Assembly (NCBI GenBank): GCA_029051085.1
Contig: JAIDLK010000012.1
Span: 1 to 36,232, forward strand
DNA: 36,232 bases
Reading direction: 5' to 3'
DNA from: Alphaproteobacteria bacterium
GTDB lineage: Bacteria > Pseudomonadota > Alphaproteobacteria > Rs-D84
Positions 3,151-24,058 of this stretch are shown one piece after another (within the stretch, counting starts at the first letter, position 1; every line of letters starts with the position of its first letter). The notes beneath the pieces were generated by a model that did no database searches, was not told the origin of the DNA, and saw only the letters and a program-made list of their open reading frames with translations. A program made the position numbers and the translations under genes.

Positions 3151-5406
3151 TTATTTCTTTTTAAACCCGCGGCGTGCAGACGGTTTTTTATTGTTTATCA
3201 AATCCGCCGCCGTTTCCAAATCCGGCTGCTCTTTTACAGAAACATTTACTTTGTTTGAGGAGATATATGCACCATAACGACCGGTCGGATAATAGTAAAT
3301 CATTTTACCGGTTGCCGGATTCTCGCCAAGCTCAATCGGCTCCACTTTTTTCGTACCGGCGGAAAGCAATTCCCGCGCCACATCCAGTGTTATGGTTTCT
3401 GCGTTATATTGTTTGGCCGAAACATTCTTTTTACCATCTGTTACATATGGTCCGAATCTGCCTACCTTAAACGATATGCCCTCTCCCAAGTCAATATTAT
3501 TAGCAGAGGCCTGACCTGCGGCGCCATTTTCCGCAGGCGCCTCTTCTGCGCCCAAACGCTGGGTATAGTCACACTCGGGATAATTTGCACAACCTACAAA
3601 CGCACCGTACTTTGATAACTTTATCCCCAGTGTCCCACCACATTTCGGACATTTGCCATCACCGTCGCCAAACAGATGCATATGCATTATCTCGTTTATG
3701 GAATCGATTATTTCCGCTGTCTTGACACCACTTGCGGCACCAATCATGCTGTTGGTAGGTTCCCAGAATGCCTGCAGGGATTTAATCTTGTCTGCGCGAC
3801 CGTTGGAAACCTCGTCCAGGGTGTCCTCGGTCTTGGCGGTGAAATTAACGTCTACCAAATCTGTGAAATATTTGGATAGGTAAGCGGCGATAACCCACCC
3901 GCCCGACGTCGGATGAAAGCGGCGCTGTTTGTCCTGCTCAACATATTTACGGTCAACGATTGTAGACATAATCGTTGCGTATGTTGACGGACGCCCGATT
4001 CCCAATTCTTCAAGCTTCTTTACCAATGACGCCTCTGTATAACGGGCGGGCGGTTGGGTAAAGTGCTGTTCCGGGCAAAGCGATGTTATTTGTATGGCGT
4101 CGCCCACACTTAAAACCGGCAACTTGGATTCACTTGACGTGTCGGCATCATCGCGACCTTCGGTATAAACTTTCATAAAACCGTCAAATGTTCGCGTCGT
4201 GCCAACCGCATGAAATACCGCCGCACGGTCCGCCGTTTCAATATCGGCCGCAACACTGTCGAATTCCGCATTCGTCATCTGGCATGCAATGGTACGCTTC
4301 CAGATTAAATCGTATAGCTTTGCCTCGTCACCGGATAATTCCGGGCCGGTGCCATCAAAATGAGTTGGACGGATGGCCTCGTGCGCTTCTTGGGCGTTTT
4401 TTGATTTCGTTACATATACGTTCGGTGTTTTGGGCACAAAACGCTGGCCATAAGTTGCGGCGATATATTCTCGTATCGCCCCGACCGCATCCGCAGACAG
4501 GTTTGTTGCATCCGTACGCATATATGTAATCAACCCCTGTTCATAAAGCTTTTGAGCAGTGCTCATTGTACGCTTTGATGAAAAGTAAAGCTTGCGCGCC
4601 GCCTCCTGCTGAAGTGTAGAGGTTGTAAATGGTGCCGCCGCACGACGGGATGTCTTTTTCTTTTCAATATTTACAACCGAGGCATTTATAACAGGTTCAC
4701 CGATGCCCGATAAAATTTCATCCATGCGCGAACGGCCACCAATGCTTAACTTTTCGATTTTCTCGCCACCAAATACGGACAATGCGGCGGAAAAAGTATC
4801 GGCGCCACGCATCATTTCCGCAGCCAGGCTCCAATATTCAACCGGACGAAAGGCCTCTATCTCGCGCTCGCGATCGACAACCAGCTTTACCGCAACAGAC
4901 TGTACGCGCCCGGCGGATTTCCCCAGATTACGACGCCACAACAAAGGCGAAATACCAAAACCAATCAGATAATCCAAAGCGCGGCGAACCAAATATGCAT
5001 CGACCAGATTCTGATCTATCTCACGCGGGTTTTCAATGGCGGCCTGAACGGCTTTCTTTGTAATTTCATGAAATGCGACACGATAGACTTTTTTTCCGGA
5101 CAATAATTTCTTGGCACGCAAAATATCCAATATATGCCAGGCGATGGCCTCTCCCTCGCGGTCAGGGTCCGATGCCAGATATACGGCATCCGCCTTTTTA
5201 ACCTCGTCCGTTATCAGTTTTATCTGACGTTCCTTGCCCGGCATAATCTGCCAGCGCATCGCAAAATTATTTTCCGTATCAACACTGCCGTTTTCGGGAA
5301 CCAAATCACGCACATGACCGACCGACGCAATAACACGCCAGCCCTTACCCAAATATTTTTCGATTGTTTTGGCCTTGGACGGAGATTCAACGATAAGTAA
5401 GTTCAT
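3151..5406 (-). CDS. topA: DNA topoisomerase I
   Basis: Toprim N-terminus (LLIVESPSKAKTIEKYLG), DPDREGEAIAWH, active-site region ITYMRTD, C-terminal Cys4 zinc ribbon (CPKCGG...CANYPEC), 751 aa. Confidence 0.95.
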   Translation of the reverse strand: MNLLIVESPSKAKTIEKYLGKGWRVIASVGHVRDLVPENGSVDTENNFAMRWQIMPGKERQIKLITDEVKKADAVYLASDPDREGEAIAWHILDILRAKKLLSGKKVYRVAFHEITKKAVQAAIENPREIDQNLVDAYLVRRALDYLIGFGISPLLWRRNLGKSAGRVQSVAVKLVVDREREIEAFRPVEYWSLAAEMMRGADTFSAALSVFGGEKIEKLSIGGRSRMDEILSGIGEPVINASVVNIEKKKTSRRAAAPFTTSTLQQEAARKLYFSSKRTMSTAQKLYEQGLITYMRTDATNLSADAVGAIREYIAATYGQRFVPKTPNVYVTKSKNAQEAHEAIRPTHFDGTGPELSGDEAKLYDLIWKRTIACQMTNAEFDSVAADIETADRAAVFHAVGTTRTFDGFMKVYTEGRDDADTSSESKLPVLSVGDAIQITSLCPEQHFTQPPARYTEASLVKKLEELGIGRPSTYATIMSTIVDRKYVEQDKQRRFHPTSGGWVIAAYLSKYFTDLVDVNFTAKTEDTLDEVSNGRADKIKSLQAFWEPTNSMIGAASGVKTAEIIDSINEIMHMHLFGDGDGKCPKCGGTLGIKLSKYGAFVGCANYPECDYTQRLGAEEAPAENGAAGQASANNIDLGEGISFKVGRFGPYVTDGKKNVSAKQYNAETITLDVARELLSAGTKKVEPIELGENPATGKMIYYYPTGRYGAYISSNKVNVSVKEQPDLETAADLINNKKPSARRGFKKK

Positions 5407-13771: not shown

Positions 13772-13800
13772 ACCACCGATTATTCTGATGGTTTTTATTT
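13772..13800 (+). promoter_or_regulatory. Terminator-like hairpin plus U-tract inside the 5' leader of the 13844 ORF (possible attenuator)
   Basis: ACCACC-gattattct-GATGGT followed by TTTTATTTTTTT. The 14-mer GATGGTTTTTATTT is identical to 23304-23317 in the leader of the 23341 ORF. Confidence 0.5.
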
Positions 13801-13843
13801 TTTTATACTTTCCCAATTTCTGCATGTTTTTATCCTTGTTTTT

Positions 13844-14191
13844 ATGCCTAAGGAAAACGGTCCTTTGTTTGCCGCATTATGCATTGTTGGTGCAACACCG
13901 GCAATGGCGGCATCAAACGGTATGTGCGAACTGATTGTACAAATGCAAAATGTATTTAAGATACTGCGAACGATGGCGTTTGTCGGGGCAGGGTTTGTGT
14001 TGGCAAAATACGCATGGGATGCAATAGTCGGCGGTAAACTGGGCGGTAAAGATAACATTGCAGACGGCTTAAAGGCCGTTGGCGTACCAATGATTGTTGG
14101 ATTTGCACTGCTGTTTTCAATCGGCCTGGTTTTGGGATTTTTGTCAAACGGCGCAAATCTGGGATGCACGGCGATTACACAGGGCTGGTAA
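13844..14191 (+). CDS. Small secreted two-helix membrane protein, TrbC/VirB2 (T4SS pilin)-like architecture
   Basis: Signal peptide (LFAALCIVGATPAMAA), then hydrophobic helix - charged/aromatic loop (AKYAWDAIVGGKLGGKDNIADGLK) - second hydrophobic helix (VPMIVGFALLFSIGLVLGFL). At 115 aa, length and layout resemble VirB2/TrbC pilins. No obvious SD. Not verified by a profile search. Confidence 0.5.
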   Translation: MPKENGPLFAALCIVGATPAMAASNGMCELIVQMQNVFKILRTMAFVGAGFVLAKYAWDAIVGGKLGGKDNIADGLKAVGVPMIVGFALLFSIGLVLGFLSNGANLGCTAITQGW

Positions 14192-14206
14192 ACAAGGGGG
14201 ATGAAT

Positions 14207-14287
14207 ATGAAAATATCAAAAAAGCACGTTGTATTCGCGATAATGGTTATCGCCATACTGGCATGCGGATACATGATTGCGATATAA
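14207..14287 (+). CDS. 26-aa single-TM micro-ORF (MKISKKHVVFAIMVIAILACGYMIAI)
   Basis: Not in the ORF track (too short). GGGGGA SD 6 nt upstream of the ATG, the same SD type as metG and the 23341 ORF. Starts 16 nt after the preceding stop and is followed at once by a terminator. Contains a lipobox-like ILAC. Confidence 0.4.
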   Translation: MKISKKHVVFAIMVIAILACGYMIAI

Positions 14288-14290
14288 AAT

Positions 14291-14312
14291 CAAAGCCCCG
14301 ACCGGGGCTTTG
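14291..14312. terminator. Bidirectional intrinsic terminator between convergent accessory genes
   Basis: CAAAGCCCC-gacc-GGGGCTTTG with T-rich flanks on both strands. Confidence 0.8.
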
Positions 14313-14313
14313 A

Positions 14314-14592
14314 TTATTTTGAATAATAACAATCGCCTTCGTATACCCCACTGCCCGAGCCATCAGAAAAAGTGGTGCCGGATGGTATATAGCAAGATGT
14401 TATGTCTCCGGTATTGCGATCGACCGTTGTACCATAAACCCCACCGGATGATGGACAGCGAGTGCATGCTGCACTGTTTAAATAATATCCGGGTTTACAT
14501 GCAGTATAAGTTTTTGTGGTCGTCGTACAGGCAGCATATGCATATTGCATATTTATCAATGTTATAAGAACAATAAAAAAAATCTTTTTCAT
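14314..14592 (-). CDS. Secreted Cys-rich, Thr/Ser/Gly-rich small protein (92 aa; paralog of the upstream gene)
   Basis: Sec signal peptide MKKIFFIVLITLINMQYAYA. The mature part has 6 Cys, including CKPGYYLNSAACTRCP. AGGTGA SD. Its ATG overlaps the upstream stop (ATGA). Confidence 0.75.
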   Translation of the reverse strand: MKKIFFIVLITLINMQYAYAACTTTTKTYTACKPGYYLNSAACTRCPSSGGVYGTTVDRNTGDITSCYIPSGTTFSDGSGSGVYEGDCYYSK

Positions 14593-14945
14593 ATTATATC
14601 ACCTATATTACCTGTATCACCCATCAAACACGGAGAACCATCAGAATTCGTACTTTTGTTTGAAGGCGTATAACATGTTTTCTCAGTGGTTTCGCAGGTG
14701 CCGTAGGCCTGGGTGTAATAACCGTAAGAATCACTGCCGCTTGTGCTAGAACGTGTGCACGTAGTGCCTGATACCGTCCAGCCAATCGGACAAGTTTTCT
14801 CTGTCCGGCCTTTACAACAATACGGACTCGCTGACGTTGTCTTTTTTCTACATTCTGATGATGTGTCGCATCCTAGTAATGATGCTGAGTTTGCCGATGA
14901 TATTGGAATAACCAATATCAATGCTGCGATAAAAATATGTTTCAT
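14589..14945 (-). CDS. Secreted Cys-rich, Thr/Ser/Gly-rich small protein (118 aa from the Met at 14945)
   Basis: AGGAGG SD 7 nt upstream of the ATG at 14945; the track start at 14972 would include the SD. Signal peptide MKHIFIAALILVIPISSANSA. 9 Cys. CPIGWTVSGTTCTRSSTSG aligns with CKPGYYLNSAACTRCPSSG of the downstream paralog. Confidence 0.75.
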   Translation of the reverse strand: MKHIFIAALILVIPISSANSASLLGCDTSSECRKKTTSASPYCCKGRTEKTCPIGWTVSGTTCTRSSTSGSDSYGYYTQAYGTCETTEKTCYTPSNKSTNSDGSPCLMGDTGNIGDII

Positions 14946-14970
14946 TTTAAACCTCCTGTTTGTGCGAAAC

Positions 14971-15183
14971 AAAAAACCACCAAATATTTGGTGGTCAGGA
15001 GGCTGATAACAATTCTGTGAATTGCGTGCTTATTCAATATATTCGCAACCCTCCTGACCCGCGGTTCAGGAGATTTATATTTAACGTCGTAATAAAAATG
15101 GCGCGGCGCGCCAACAAGTATCTATTCCGACGCACAGAAAGAGGTTATCAGGCCTCATCACGACAACCCGTCGCGACATAAAA
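14971..15183 (-). ncRNA. Structured 5' leader, copy A, of a conserved unclassified cis-regulatory RNA element ending in an intrinsic terminator
   Basis: On the minus strand: 5' hairpin; a 4-bp/8-nt-loop hairpin (GAGG-cctgataa-CCTC, 15141-15156); variable hairpin; H1 (15051-15072); a 26-nt core (15028-15053) identical at 25/26 to 23227-23252; a 5-bp hairpin AATTC-aca-GAATT; GTTATCAG complementary to the 8-nt loop; CCTCCTGACC (14993-15002) complementary to the H1 3' arm; terminator CCACCAAATATTTGGTGG plus T6 (14971-14994). The strand call follows the U-tract and the downstream gene. Confidence 0.6.
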
Positions 15184-15221
15184 AGTATATAGTACAGTAA
15201 GAATTTTTGCCAGTGATTTTT

Positions 15222-15886: not shown

Positions 15887-18800
15887 TCAGGCTTTTTGCA
15901 CGGATACGGAAAAGGCGTAGCCTTCTATCTCCGTATCATATTCTCCGCCATGGGCGGCAATCATTTCTTTTATCAGCGCATCCCGCATGATGCGTTTTTT
16001 ATGCGCATCCATGGCCATGGCCAATGCAGGGTCCGCAGAATAAGTCAATATTATGCGGTCTGAGACATCAAGACCCGCCGCCTTGCGCGTATCCTGAATA
16101 AAGCGCAAGGCATCGTTTGCCAGTCCCTCGGCCACCAATTCCGAATTTATTTCCGTATCCAGTACAACCACGGCCGTATTATCAGGCAATGCCGCACCGG
16201 TCACGCCCGGCTTTACGGTTAAACGGCTTTCAAATTCGTCCGAATTCAATGTATGACCCGCAACAATCAGCGTATCTCCGGACACTTCATATTCGCCTTT
16301 CTTTACCGCCGGGATGATTTCCTTTAACGCACCACCCAAGCGCGCACCGATACGCGGGGTAATCAAATACACGAACTTGTCCGCAACACCGTCGACAGTG
16401 TCGGCAAAATCAACGGACTTAACATTCAGCTCTTCTTTGATAATGTCGCTGTATGCGCCCAAATCAGCACCGGCCACGGTTAATTTATTCAACGGCAGAC
16501 GATTGCGCAGATGATAATTTTCACGCAGCTGTTTACCCGCCGATACAACCATTTGCACACGACGCATATCACGAACGATATCGCCATCAACAACACCCGG
16601 TGTCGGGAAGTCGGTCATATGGACAGATTCACCACCCGTTAAATTCTTGTAAATATACTCTGATACGAACGGGGCAAACGGCGCCATTGCACGCGTAAGC
16701 GTTGTCAGAACGGAATACAGGGTGTCAAAGGCGGCCTGTTCTTCATCCCAGAAACGTGAACGAGACCGACGGATATACCAGTTATTCAATATGTCCAGGA
16801 ATCTAACAAATTCTTTTATGGCCATATCCGGCTTATATTCCGCCAAAGACTTGTCTGTTATCTGAATTAACTCGTTCAATTCCGCAATGATATACTTATC
16901 CAGCGCATTGTCCGAGGCATTTGACGTTGCAACTATTCCGCCCGCATTCGCATACAGCGTAAAGAAATGATATGCATTCCACAGCGGTGTTAGAATTGTT
17001 TTGGCGGTTTCTGTAAATACCTTTCCTTCTTTGTCTACGGGGACGGGCTCGGCCTTCATGAAATTTGACCCCAATATGAACAGGCGAATGCTATCCGCGC
17101 CGAACTGTTCTATCTGGGCCTCGGGATTAACAAAATTTTGCAGCGATTTGGAAAACTTTTTCTTGTTTTCATCAACAACCATTCCATTTGCCGAGACCGT
17201 ACGGAAAGCCGGACTGTCCCACATGGCGGTTGCCAAAACCATCAATGCATAGAACCAACCGCGTGTCTGGTCCTGGCCTTCGATAATGTAATCGGCCGGG
17301 AATGTCGCGCTGAACTTATCCTTGTTTTCAAAAGGATAATGCAACGAGGCCCACGGCATGGAGCCGGATTCAACCCAGCAATCCAAAACATCCGGAATAC
17401 GATGCCAGCCGTCTTTTGTTAAGGCATCCAGCGTCGGGCGATGCAAATCCGCAACCTGTACGCCAAAGAACTCCTCCAGCTCTGCAATAGAGCCAAAAAC
17501 CTTGTATTCGCCGTCACGCTCCCAAATCGGCAGCGGCGTTCCCCAGAAGCGATTACGGGATATAGACCAGGGACGCGCGTTCTCAATCCAGCTGCGGAAA
17601 CGCTCGCCGGCAGAGGTCCAGTTTACCTTTTTATTATTCTCAATCAATTTTTCACGGATTTTCGGAACGTCAATATACCATGAATCCGTCGCACGATAGA
17701 TAAGCTTTTCCTTGGAGCGATCGCCATACGGATAGCTGTGCTTATATTGTTCTTTCTTAACCACATGACCGCGGGATTTCAGCAAATCCATAACCTTTGG
17801 ATTTGCGGCAAAAATATTTTCGCCTGCAAAATCACGGACAGTCTCATCAAAATTACCATAGTTATCAACATTTAACAGCACCGGAAACTTTGGGTCAATG
17901 GCCTTGGCCGCCCAGAAGTCATCCGCACCAAATGCCGGCGCGATATGAACAATGCCGGTACCGTCACTGTCGGAGACATATTCGGCCGGAATTACCTGAT
18001 ACAGCAACGGCGATGCATCGGTATAATAATCAAACAGCGGCGTATATTTCATTCCAACCAAGTCACGCCCTGTAACTTCACCAATCTGTTCGGCATTTGC
18101 CAACTGCTTTTCATATGCTTTCAGGCGGCTTTGGGCAATTACGTAGACATGACCGTCCGCATCACGCATGCGAACATATTTCATATCAGGATTTACTGCC
18201 AACGCACTGTTCGCCGGCAATGTCCACGGCGTTGTTGTCCACGCCATAACCCGGTCGCCGTTTTCCAACTCAAACCATACCGTCAGCGCATCATCAACAA
18301 CATCACGATAATCCTGGGACGCCTCGGAATTAGACACAACCGTACCATTTACCCAGTCAAACGGGTTTACACTGTAATCCTTGTAAAGCAGCCCTTTGTC
18401 ATACAACGATTTCAGCGTCCAAAGCATGGATTCCATATAGTTTTTATCCATGGTTTTATAACCGTATCCGTCACCTACATCCACCCATCGACCAATACGG
18501 GCAATAAACTTTTCCCATTCGGTTGTATATGTCATAACATCGCTGCGGCACATGTCACAGAATGCGGCGATACCGTCCGTGGCAACAATTTCACGTGCGG
18601 TACGCTTTTGCTTTTTTTCGACCGAATTTTCCGCCGGCAGACCATGGCAATCCCATCCCAGCTCGCGCCGTACAAATCGTCCCTTCATTGTCTGATAACG
18701 ACATACCATGTCTTTTACCGCCGAGACCCCCAAATGCCCCCAGTGCGGCAAACCGTTTCCAAACGGCGGGCCGTCAAAGAAAGAGAAGGGATGGCCCTGT

Positions 18801-22182: not shown

Positions 22183-23058
22183 TTATATCTCCAATTTTTT
22201 AGCTGTTATTTCACTGCAGATTCTGCCGCACAGGCCTGTTAAAACATTGCCCGGCCCGCATTCAACCATTTCGGTTATAGCCAAATCATGCATTTTTAAA
22301 ACACTTTCACGCCAACGCACCCCATGCGTCATTTGGTAAACCAGCGCCTCTTTTATCTCGGTCGGGTCCATCATAACGTCGGCTGTTTTATTTGCGATAA
22401 ATTTCGACGACGGCGTCTTTATTTCAACGTTTTCCAAAGCGGTGCGCATTGCGACGGCGGCGCTTTCCTGCATACGGCAATGAACCGGCACCGACAGCGC
22501 AAGCGGCATCGCACGACGGGCGCCCGCATCCTTGGCGGCGGCCATTGTACGTTCAACAATGTCTTTTGCGCCGGAAATCACAACCTGGCCCGGACAGTTG
22601 TCATTCGCCACATCGCAATCGTTGGCGGCGCAGATTTCACGCACCGCATCAATATCCAGACCGATAATAACCGCGGTCAGACCCGCACCGACGGGGGCCG
22701 CGCTTTGCATTGCGTCACCGCGTGCACGCAACAGACGCGCCGCATCACCCACCGACAATGCACCGGCCGCGCACAGAGCGGTATATTCACCCAAAGAATG
22801 CCCTGCAACATATTCCGGCAATTCGACACCCGACGCACGCAGCATCGCAATGGATGTCGCCATAATCGCAGGCTGTACATTGCGCGTTAATGTTAAATCG
22901 TCCGCCGGACCGTTAAAGATAATATCCGTTAACTTTTCACCAAGCGCGGCGTCAACCTCATCAAACACGGCACGCGCGGCGGCATTGCTTTCATATAATT
23001 CACGCCCCATGCCGACAGATTGGCTGCCCTGGCCGGGGAATACAAAAACAGATGACAT
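22183..23058 (-). CDS. fabD: Malonyl-CoA-ACP transacylase FabD
   Basis: FVFPGQGSQSVGMG, GHSLGEY nucleophile elbow, GAAGGAGGA SD. Confidence 0.92.
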   Translation of the reverse strand: MSSVFVFPGQGSQSVGMGRELYESNAAARAVFDEVDAALGEKLTDIIFNGPADDLTLTRNVQPAIMATSIAMLRASGVELPEYVAGHSLGEYTALCAAGALSVGDAARLLRARGDAMQSAAPVGAGLTAVIIGLDIDAVREICAANDCDVANDNCPGQVVISGAKDIVERTMAAAKDAGARRAMPLALSVPVHCRMQESAAVAMRTALENVEIKTPSSKFIANKTADVMMDPTEIKEALVYQMTHGVRWRESVLKMHDLAITEMVECGPGNVLTGLCGRICSEITAKKLEI

Positions 23059-23107
23059 ACGTCCTCCTTCAAATATTGAATCACGCGTGAATTATAGACA
23101 TAAAAAT

Positions 23108-23136
23108 TTGCAAACGCAAAAAGAATTAGATATAAT
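23108..23136 (+). promoter_or_regulatory. Near-consensus sigma70 promoter TTGCAA-N17-TATAAT
   Basis: -35 at 23108-23113, -10 at 23131-23136, with an exact 17-nt spacer. Drives the structured leader and the 23341 ORF. Confidence 0.7.
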
Positions 23137-23313
23137 CAAGGTGCCGGCGGGTATTCTGCGGGCGGGGTGTAAGAGCCCCATAACTGCCTGTTTCCGATGA
23201 AACAGAAAAACTCCAACCAATGGCTGGAGGGTCGCGAATATATTGAATAAGCGCACTATAGCAGTTTATAGCTCTTAACCTCCAGCCATCTGAATTTTAT
23301 TCCGATGGTTTTT
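23137..23313 (+). ncRNA. Structured 5' leader, copy B, of the same conserved unclassified cis-regulatory RNA element
   Basis: 5' hairpin GCCGGC..GCGGGC (23143-23163); a 4-bp/8-nt-loop hairpin GGGG-tgtaagag-CCCC (23164-23179); hairpin CTGTTTC-cgat-GAAACAG; H1 CTCCAACC-aat-GGCTGGAG (23211-23229); 26-nt core 23227-23252; 5-bp hairpin CTATA-gcagtt-TATAG; GCTCTTA (23271-23277) complementary to the 8-nt loop; CCTCCAGCCAT (23279-23289) complementary to 23220-23230; terminator-like CCATC..GATGG plus T5 (23286-23313). Confidence 0.6.
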
Positions 23314-23340
23314 ATTTATTAAAATCACGGGGGAATTCAG

Positions 23341-23544
23341 ATGTTGACCGGAAGGCACATAGAGGCCGCCAGAATCCATGCCGGCATACCGATATTTATC
23401 ATATGCAATGCAATGAATATAGAAACCGAAGCTGAATATCACTCCATTGTTGATAAAAACAAAAAGCCAAGCGTATACCAGCAGATAATGATATATACAT
23501 TATTTGAAGAACGTCGCAAATCAATGCCTATACTTTGCGTATAG
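23341..23544 (+). CDS. Small XRE-like helix-turn-helix protein (67 aa), tentative
   Basis: GGGGGA SD 6 nt before the ATG. The N-terminus MLTGRHIEAARIHAGI.... resembles the MLTG.QIRAARALLG start of many small alphaproteobacterial XRE/HTH proteins. The 3' end overlaps the convergent queH by 17 nt. Confidence 0.4.
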   Translation: MLTGRHIEAARIHAGIPIFIICNAMNIETEAEYHSIVDKNKKPSVYQQIMIYTLFEERRKSMPILCV

Positions 23545-24058
23545 AAAATTCGCAGCCACAGTAATTCTGGCGATAAAAATCAGAGGTGCGGCCGATGCTC
23601 TGGCGCAGCCCTTCGTCCCACTTTATCGGCATATAGCATATGTCGCCACATTTTACGGTCGCGGCCGCGTCAACCTGGGCCTGGTCTTTGTGGCGTGATA
23701 CGCCAAGAACACTGGCAATCGCATCATATCCGTTTTCGCGCGCAAATCGGGCCGCGCGGGCAAAGCGAAACTCAAAGCATGCCGTGCAACGCGCGCCGCG
23801 TTCGGGCGACGCCTCAAGCCCCGAGACCGCCGCACGCCATGCGGCATGGTCATATTCCAATTCCGCGTGCCGTACGCCCAGGCTTTCGCAATATCTAATT
23901 TGTTCCGCCATACGCTTTTGATATTCGGTTTCAGGGAAAATGTTGGGATTGAAAAACAGCACGATAAAATCATCAACATCCGGGATTTGACCGTCCGCCA
24001 ATTGTTTTATCGCGCCCGCACTGCACGGCGCACAACAAGATACCAAGACCAGTTTCAT
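23528..24058 (-). CDS. queH: Epoxyqueuosine reductase QueH (DUF208)
   Basis: N-terminal SCCAPCS motif and C-terminal YCGCEFS motif typical of QueH, 176 aa. Confidence 0.85.
   Translation of the reverse strand: MKLVLVSCCAPCSAGAIKQLADGQIPDVDDFIVLFFNPNIFPETEYQKRMAEQIRYCESLGVRHAELEYDHAAWRAAVSGLEASPERGARCTACFEFRFARAARFARENGYDAIASVLGVSRHKDQAQVDAAATVKCGDICYMPIKWDEGLRQSIGRTSDFYRQNYCGCEFSIRKV

Follow-up and report, generated by a model that had tools for sequence, protein, structure and literature searches.

A conserved leader RNA with two predicted, mutually exclusive folds ahead of a small XRE-like gene in Alphaproteobacteria of the order Rs-D84

The region between fabD and a 67-amino-acid (aa) open reading frame (ORF) in contig JAIDLK010000012.1 (assembly GCA_029051085.1; Alphaproteobacteria bacterium, order Rs-D84) raises the question of whether a conserved block within it acts as RNA or as DNA. 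The window analysed here, the whole stretch of 36,232 nucleotides (nt), contains the block twice, and the copy next to fabD is referred to as copy B. A preliminary description had offered two readings of it: a leader RNA in which competing pairings decide between termination and read-through and, alternatively, an operator for the adjacent helix-turn-helix (HTH) protein. Comparison with its relatives indicates that copy B is very probably a cis-acting, bistable leader RNA, that is, a transcription attenuator, read from a TTGCAA/TATAAT promoter. The elements of the predicted leader, with the promoter ahead of it and the gene behind it, are the following.

23108–23136, plus strand: promoter, with the –35 hexamer TTGCAA at 23108–23113, a 17-nt spacer and the –10 hexamer TATAAT at 23131–23136 (consensus scan)
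23143–23163, plus strand: hairpin Ha (GCCGGCG / TGCGGGC), the first structure of the predicted transcript, in which six of seven pairs change on both sides (alignment A7)
23164–23179, plus strand: segment GGGGTGTAAGAGC-CCC (RNA GGGGUGUAAGAGC followed by CCC), able to fold locally into hairpin Hb (GGGG:CCCC) or to supply one strand, the 5' one, of the long-range helix
23182–23187, plus strand: S1b, AACTGC (RNA AACUGC), predicted to pair with the P3 loop GCAGTT at 23261–23266, which excludes P3
23188–23205, plus strand: hairpin Pa (CTGTTTC cgat GAAACAG), predicted in both folds
23206–23210, plus strand: A-rich linker AAAAA after Pa
23211–23230, plus strand: P0, the 'decoy' H1 of the preliminary description, made of X'up, a loop (3–19 nt across relatives) and X
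23211–23218, plus strand: X'up, CTCCAACC (RNA CUCCAACC), the 5' strand of P0
23222–23230, plus strand: X, GGCTGGAGG (RNA GGCUGGAGG), able to pair upstream with CTCCAACC or downstream with CCTCCAGCC
23231–23254, plus strand: P2, stem GTCGC / GCGC closing the conserved core GAATATATTGAATAA (RNA GAAUAUAUUGAAUAA) at 23236–23250
23256–23271, plus strand: P3, CTATA / TATAG with loop GCAGTT
23272–23278, plus strand: linker J3/1, CUCUUAA; in the long-range helix GCTCTTA from 23271 supplies the 3' strand, and it covaries with 23170–23176
23279–23287, plus strand: X'down, CCTCCAGCC (RNA CCUCCAGCC), the 3' strand of P1, with its partner at 23222–23230
23284–23313, plus strand: putative intrinsic terminator, AGCCATC-TGAAT-TTT-ATTCC-GATGGTT followed by a T run, its first 4 nt lying within X'down
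23329–23333, plus strand: Shine-Dalgarno (SD) sequence GGGGG, with the ATG at 23341
23341–23544, plus strand: 67-aa ORF, a putative small XRE-like HTH protein, downstream of the copy B leader

Direct reading of the sequence and a consensus scan agree on the promoter that had been proposed, TTGCAA-N17-TATAAT, which matches the sigma-70-type consensus at 10 of 12 positions. Its hexamers, its spacer within the 16–18 nt range and its retention among relatives together mark it as a predicted sigma-70-type promoter, from which transcription would start near 23143, ∼7 nt after the –10 hexamer. Among 66 aligned relatives the –10 hexamer is invariant or at least 90% conserved and lies at a fixed distance from hairpin Ha; because this distance is fixed, the whole stretch from ∼23143 appears to be transcribed as one conserved, structured unit that extends beyond the 3' half alone. 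The structured leader suggested at the outset is real, with a length of ∼170 nt, and its conserved structure reaches over everything from ∼23143 and not only over the 3' part first described.

The pairings on which the leader reading depends were located in the sequence of 22800–23700. The segment ATGGCTGGAGG lies at 23220–23230, its local hairpin partner is found as CTCCAACC (23211–23218) with GGCTGGAG, and the distal complement CCTCCAGCCAT lies at 23279–23289. Both complementarities hold in copy B, as proposed, and are retained with compensatory changes in more than 100 relatives. They belong to two folds predicted to be mutually exclusive, only one of which completes the terminator. The OFF fold is composed of the long-range helix, P0, P2 and the full terminator, and the ON fold is a P1-P2-P3 three-way junction that occupies the base of the terminator.

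Covariation was found on both sides of this competition. When 106 sequences were aligned with MAFFT alone, 95.3% of the cells of P1, P2 and P3 proved to be paired and double changes occur in 11 of 18 pairs; none of 500 shuffles reached the observed value, and slid partners pair at only 28–56%. The corresponding values in a model-fitted alignment of the genome set, for which the search had imposed only GGAGG and the core, are 98.3% and 14 of 18 pairs. P1 is 99.5–99.8% paired, with changes on both sides in five of its nine pairs in alignment A4 (UA/CG, UA/AU/CG and others), every pair of P2 covaries, and P3 changes on both sides in three of four pairs (alignment A3) or in all four (A4), for example from UA to AU in 37–48 sequences. 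The competing hairpin P0 has 94.5% of its cells paired (A3) and tracks the changes in X, as in TTGG/CCAA, TCAGG/CCTGA, CTGG/CCAG, CGGG/CCCG and, with a G-U pair, ATTGG/CCAGT. A hairpin at the position of Pa is present in most relatives.

A second competitor, acting over a long range, had been overlooked in the preliminary description. It joins 23164–23176 to 23271–23283, with GGGGU facing ACCUC and a 7-mer that varies among relatives facing the linker between P3 and P1, and is accompanied by the pairing of 23182–23187 with the P3 loop. The long-range helix is part of the minimum-energy fold of copy B, is 90% paired across the relatives and shows changes on both sides in nine of 12 pairs, with column 90/243, for instance, occurring as AU (24), CG (23), GC (9) and UA (5). 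At position 83/248 the commonest pair is G-U (54 GU, 12 AU), and this dominance of G-U fixes both the RNA level and the strand concerned. For S1b an alignment-free comparison was used, in which the mean helix score of each upstream region with its own P3 region was 19.2 as against 14.6 (standard deviation 2.5) with those of other members (n = 74); the pairing often includes part of the P3 arms, and in copy B the S1b:P3-loop helix also belongs to the minimum-energy fold. Considered whole, the OFF fold with its long-range helix is 89.9% paired with double changes in 22 of 31 pairs, and the ON fold, counted with the Hb alternative of 23164–23179, is 90.4% paired with double changes in 19 of 29.

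The conserved core, previously treated as a free element, has its place within helix P2. The exact 15-mer is present in only 34 of the 121 copies listed from a scan that did not use the core, and the variants in this set include GAAUAUAAAGAAUAA, GAAUAUAUAGAAUAA and GAUAUACAUAAAUAA. Moreover, 17 of the 107 unique members listed, again found without the core, carry a hairpin of 10–18 nt inserted between the invariant GAAUAAU and AAAAUAAG, and the inserted stems differ from one another (AUCGGG/CCCGGU, AUGGA/UCCAU, GCGGG/CCCGC, GCC/GGC, CAUUGA/UCAAUG). Because a covarying hairpin can split it in this way, the core is best read as an RNA internal (or apical) loop of P2, GAAUA / AAUAAG on a closing C-G pair, to the exclusion of a DNA palindrome, and the supposed palindrome AAUAUAUU is merely the variable tip of the loop. 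The P2 internal loop is the sole invariant non-helical element and occurs in both folds. A leader peptide starting from GGAGG and a UUG in the core was rejected, as UUG is absent in GAAUAUAAAGAAUAA and GAUAUACAUAAAUAA, the frames differ in length and content, and the spacing from GGAGG varies by the 2–8 nt that the search pattern permitted.

The same observations bear on the operator, in which the conserved block, a 9-mer upstream and a nearby palindrome would be sites for the adjacent 67-aa HTH protein, repressing or activating both loci. The block does contain the palindromic AATATATT, CTCCAACC and GGTTGGAG form an inverted repeat at the DNA level, the downstream protein is XRE-like, and one copy of the 9-mer ATATTGAAT lies 5' of the –35 hexamer, although at 23073–23081 and not at 23071–23079 as first given. 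The window holds four copies of this 9-mer where 0.73 would be expected; two of them are the cores themselves and one is in a coding region (16784–16792, minus strand), so that the extra copy is within chance once the two cores are set aside. An upstream 9-mer is found in only two of 67 homologous regions (the window itself and a tandem element), and the best upstream match scores equal those of coding and shuffled controls. The palindrome is the following.

23081–23090: perfect 10-bp palindrome TCACGCGTGA, between the fabD start (23058, minus strand) and the –35 hexamer of the leader

The window has no second copy of this sequence, and among 242 related loci there is one occurrence, away from any element; it could be an unrelated fabD operator or a product of chance. 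The block itself lies ∼90 nt 3' of the start site and off the promoter, the helices on either side of it covary and often contain G-U pairs, the distance between the repeat arms ranges from 3 to 19 nt, and 17 relatives have the 10–18-nt hairpin within it. Many members also precede genes with no HTH gene nearby. The combination of palindrome, fixed spacing, promoter-adjacent position and conservation in orthologues that marks XRE/Cro-type operators was not found here. An operator is consequently judged highly improbable, with the 9-mer unconserved upstream, the palindrome unique, the core split and the spacing variable. The related proposal that copies A and B form one regulon survives, but the link between them would be the shared leader RNA and no shared operator.

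The protein that was to bind this operator is itself only distantly recognisable. The 67-aa ORF alone gave no match in a Pfam search, and a profile search of the PDB was weak (best E = 0.065). Homologues stand behind the same leader at six other loci, and the profile of this group matches that of the group positive for HTH_3/HTH_31 with an hhalign probability of 92.8% (E = 4e-7). Thus the XRE-like label given earlier draws support from the subfamily profile but not from any direct Pfam match, and is reasonable but not proven.

The leader reading next requires that the competing folds meet a terminator. The hairpin AGCCATC..GATGGTT is present at 23284–23310, with a stem of 7 + 4 bp interrupted by a 1 × 1 mismatch and followed by U5 (T5 at 23309–23313). 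It had been called weak, and the consensus scan indeed gives no call, because the stem carries the mismatch. Among the relatives, 104 of 110 have a hairpin of at least five contiguous pairs and a U-rich tail 3' of X'down, which points to an intrinsic terminator in most of the family, in copy B a weak one. The predicted overlap is also borne out: the last four bases of CCTCCAGCC open the stem, and in 99 of the 104 terminator-bearing members the terminator 5' arm begins 3–5 nt inside X'down. The proposal that terminator formation depends on which of its competing partners GGCTGGAGG takes is accordingly supported, by sequence comparison, through both the compensatory changes and this overlap. With P0 and the long-range helix opposed to P1, and P1 overlapping the terminator, the arrangement has the make-up of a terminator/antiterminator attenuator. 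Taken together, the comparisons establish the predicted pair of folds, their conservation and the terminator overlap at the level of sequence.

Fold computations indicate which of the two states is the more stable. For full-length copy B the OFF fold, which is the minimum-energy structure and contains the complete terminator, has –61.3 kcal/mol as compared with –52.9 kcal/mol when P1 is forced, and forcing P1 dissolves the terminator. Before the 3' arm of the terminator has been made the two are nearly equal (–52.5 versus –51.3 kcal/mol). For the family as a whole the median advantage of the OFF fold is ∼6 kcal/mol, which suggests an attenuator that is OFF by default and needs a few kcal/mol of stabilisation of P1-P2-P3 to be switched. 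An intrinsic terminator hairpin must abut its U run, so the loss of the bottom four terminator pairs should matter. Sequestration of the downstream SD sequence by CCUCC appears unlikely, as in each fold the CCUCC segments are paired or their effect would have the wrong sign.

Collectively, these data suggest the following mechanism. In the OFF state, the more stable default, GGGGU-G-UAAGAGC would pair with GCUCUUA-ACCUC and AACUGC with the P3 loop, while P0 would hold GGCUGGAGG; the AGCC at the end of X'down would thereby be free, the full terminator could form beside the U run, and transcription would stop at ∼23313. In the ON state, GGCUGGAGG would pair with CCUCCAGCC to form P1, closing the three-way junction with P2 and P3. 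The four foot pairs of the terminator would then be lost, the remaining weak hairpin would be displaced from the U run, and the polymerase would continue into the 67-aa XRE-like gene. We infer this direction of regulation, OFF by default, and likewise that some effector stabilises the ON fold; it could be a small molecule or an RNA-binding protein. The recognition surface probably combines the P2 internal loop (GAAUA / AAUAAG) with the top of P1, both of them invariant, and the loop could serve as a protein handle, as a tertiary-docking module or as part of a ligand site.

Several points weigh against this attenuator. The invariance of P0 and P1 in the metagenome set is in part a matter of construction, since the search pattern required both. 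The copy B terminator is weak, and the competition between P1 and the terminator involves only 3–5 nt, so that some termination could persist in the ON fold. The linker helix of 23170–23176 with 23271–23277 shares a single base with P3, and a pseudoknot in both folds might therefore shrink the switch. Few conserved unpaired nucleotides remain for a classical ligand pocket. Finally, the start site, the termination and the read-through are all deduced from the DNA.

How the ON fold might be stabilised can be considered from the junction itself. One possibility, on balance somewhat unlikely, is a riboswitch, in which a metabolite or second messenger binds the P1-P2-P3 junction or the P2 loop. Its closing helix P1 is coupled to the terminator across a three-way junction, the median gap of ∼6 kcal/mol could be bridged by a ligand, and copy B is near-isoenergetic at the decision point. 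Second-messenger riboswitches occur in many copies per genome before genes of the kind found here, and this leader likewise has many copies per genome before secreted or surface proteins and small regulators. Against a ligand pocket, the junction strands are very short (J1/2 0 nt, J2/3 1 nt), J3/1 covaries with its partner rather than being conserved, and Rfam searches gave no match to known aptamers. In addition, most of the invariant bases lie in helices for which two or three different partners exist (GGAGG can pair with either of two CUCC segments, and GGGG with CCC or CCUC), so their conservation is already explained.

The alternative, possible and put forward only tentatively, is an RNA-binding protein that locks the ON fold through the P2 loop, or else a switch that is effector-free and responds to transcription speed, temperature or Mg2+. 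An invariant purine-rich loop on a covarying stem that tolerates insertion of a distal hairpin is a display typical of protein or tertiary-contact modules, and since the same loop is present in both folds it would provide a fixed handle. On the other hand, no candidate protein was identified, and the host genomes are below 1 Mb and have few regulators (PMC12306168). Between a small-molecule riboswitch and a protein-dependent or effector-free switch the odds are roughly even.

The distribution of the element was traced with scans of three collections and a covariance model. A genome scan for GGAGG-N2-8-GAATATATTGAATAA gave at least 117 stretches, and the matches listed are nearly all in metagenome-assembled genomes (MAGs) of gut, rumen or faecal Alphaproteobacteria (Ca. 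Enterousia, 'Rickettsiales bacterium' and others), often with three to five loci per assembly; the four or five listed in other phyla have none of the rest of the element. A metagenome scan that omitted the core (CTCCAACC..GGTTGGAGG..CCTCCAACC) gave at least 120 stretches. The model R1, built from 106 members, finds exactly two copies in the window, at 23197–23291 (90.8 bits) and at 14989–15086 on the minus strand (66.8 bits), and, in the flanks of relatives, additional copies that depart from the exact core. In all, more than 240 leader copies were collected from gut, rumen and termite alphaproteobacterial MAGs (Ca. Enterousia and relatives), several per genome. The order Rs-D84, in which Ca. 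Enterousia is placed, is uncultured, and most of its genomes are smaller than 1 Mb (PMC12306168). A weak R1 hit at 14282–14353 on the plus strand (14.4 bits, E = 0.1), inside the Cys-rich operon behind copy A but on the opposite strand, was taken as chance.

A known RNA family was sought and rejected. With Rfam 15 (4227 models) the whole window yielded only two tRNAs, both copies searched at E ≤ 10 gave nothing above chance level (top score 19.6 bits, where the threshold is 93), and 15 further members gave only tRNAs. Such an RNA was also absent from the titles and abstracts of papers mentioning Enterousia, and combined-term searches were empty. The leader is thus a new RNA family, outside Rfam 15, with a known kind of mechanism, that of the terminator/antiterminator leader.

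The position of the family relative to genes addresses a further explanation, that the leader is a stand-alone small RNA (sRNA) gene whose ∼170-nt terminated transcript acts in trans and whose place beside a gene is incidental. Its own conserved promoter and terminator, an OFF fold stable enough to accumulate as a discrete RNA, and many copies per genome with an invariant exposed loop would all suit such a gene. However, 91 of 108 members are followed directly by a co-oriented ORF with an SD sequence, whose start codon lies at a tightly fixed distance (median 114 nt past GGAGG, interquartile range 110–122), and the fold that removes the terminator itself covaries, which a pure sRNA gene would not need. 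An independent sRNA gene is therefore improbable; a dual role as attenuator and source of a terminated sRNA could hold.

The genes behind the leader fall into two groups. The first comprises small proteins of 47–119 aa, about half of which hit HTH_31, HTH_19 or HTH_3, and the second comprises proteins with signal peptides, often Cys-rich and mostly without a Pfam family, a few of which carry Listeria-Bacteroides repeats, an outer-membrane-protein (OMP) beta-barrel, PKD or DUF285. Class A leaders precede the secreted group in 30 of 37 cases, and class B leaders precede both groups. Two other origins for the repeated copies were rejected: an invertible promoter between inverted repeats, because every copy is oriented alike with respect to the gene behind it, and an integron attC or repeat resembling a miniature inverted-repeat transposable element, because the copies are scattered among housekeeping genes (fabD, metG, nth), are in every case co-oriented with a gene and have a promoter and a terminator.

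The second copy in the window belongs to class A.

14966–15191, minus strand: copy A, of the same family, upstream of an operon for Cys-rich secreted proteins

Copies A and B have in common a 34-nt block with 88% identity (15021–15054, minus strand, in copy A), which is the strongest inverted repeat in the window, and the 19-mer core occurs twice where 0.04 would be expected. The 5' domain is also the same: GAGGCCTGATAAC at 15156–15144 pairs with GTTATCAGCCTC, and TTCTGTG at 15139–15133 pairs with the P3 loop. Members of class A have GGUCAGGAGG as X and this 5' domain, with an additional hairpin and U run in the loop of Pa. As the same 5' domain lies further upstream, the promoter of copy A is placed near 15191, and a short promoter directly 5' of P0 is rejected. 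The additional GC-rich hairpin and U run (GGCGCGCCGCGCC-ATTTTT, 15112–15094, minus strand) stands in the same place at ∼40 class A loci (L025, L031 and L056 among them) and resembles either another intrinsic terminator or the 3' terminus of a short sRNA. Copy A is followed by three successive small ORFs of 127, 92 and 159 aa (13795–14972, minus strand) without a Pfam hit; a signal peptide and numerous cysteines mark the first, and similar Cys-rich secreted proteins are found behind many members.

Some further arrangements were observed among the relatives. Five IMG/VR contigs classed as viral carry full elements (L238–L242; for example L239:12075–12176 and L238:5474–5567). Their neighbours there are genes resembling those for phage tail or lysis functions and a DNA methylase gene, and in one case the element stands directly upstream of a gene for a Rha-like antirepressor; these contigs are probably prophage edges or prophage cargo genes. 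Locus L060 (2756–3071) has two tandem copies 174 nt apart, the first without a gene behind it, and L035 has a divergent pair ∼150 nt apart (3912–4008, minus strand; 4163–4258, plus strand), from which it follows that the family can duplicate locally. At L016, L088, L104 and L110 the –35 hexamer TTGCAA lies inside the loop of an upstream hairpin with a T run (AAACGGTTGCAATCGCAACCGTTTT); here the promoter most likely overlaps the terminator of the gene before it.

If the attenuator reading is correct, its importance would reach beyond this locus. The hosts are uncultured gut symbionts with genomes below 1 Mb and few recognisable regulators (PMC12306168), and many two-state leaders of 170–230 nt in genomes of this kind imply a central control element. 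The leader precedes the genes likeliest to mediate contact with the host or other microbes, namely those for secreted Cys-rich, surface-repeat and outer-membrane proteins, as well as small XRE regulators. It may be, though this is put forward tentatively, that an undescribed riboswitch-like class is the main gene-control device of Ca. Enterousia and the order Rs-D84, with about ten or more copies per sub-megabase genome jointly switching the secreted Cys-rich proteome and the small XRE regulators. For RNA biology the family offers an orphan switch with covariation-backed folds, an invariant candidate recognition loop and termination at the U run as a read-out, and identifying its effector would bring to light a new signalling molecule or a new RNA-binding regulator in bacteria yet to be grown.

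Four kinds of known system invite comparison. Like the operators of Cro/CI (XRE) repressors, the locus has a small XRE-like gene directly 3' of a conserved AT-rich block with a short palindrome; unlike them, the block is transcribed, lies ∼90 nt past the start, is flanked by covarying helices and can be split, and its upstream repeat is unconserved. The loop of P2, 5'-GAA.. / ..UAA-G-3' on a closing C-G pair, may resemble the UAA/GAN internal loop of large RNAs, with a GAN strand opposite a UAA strand, a likeness offered as a lead only. The UAA/GAN module usually makes long-range tertiary contacts, and variants such as GAUAUA...AAAUAA fit it poorly. The hairpins bound by LoaP, the EAR element and the phage put RNAs, which are leaders of protein-dependent or processive antitermination, share with this family a structured 5' leader RNA before intrinsic terminators and secreted or surface genes, and a hairpin that may be a protein handle; they are not known to form two exclusive folds overlapping a terminator and show no homology, and no partner paralogous to NusG was identified for the present leader. 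The pbuE adenine riboswitch, T-box and PyrR leaders are ON-riboswitches or attenuators with terminator, antiterminator and anti-antiterminator. In contrast to these, the present leader matches none of the 4227 Rfam models, has two separate competitors, the local P0 and a long-range helix spanning ∼100 nt, overlaps its terminator by only 3–5 nt and has a junction almost without conserved single-stranded bases. What it has in common with them is a promoter-proximal leader whose P1 shares bases with the terminator 5' arm, a structured core in the form of a three-way junction and an upstream competitor, here P0 with the long-range helix, that would hold the antiterminator strand by default.

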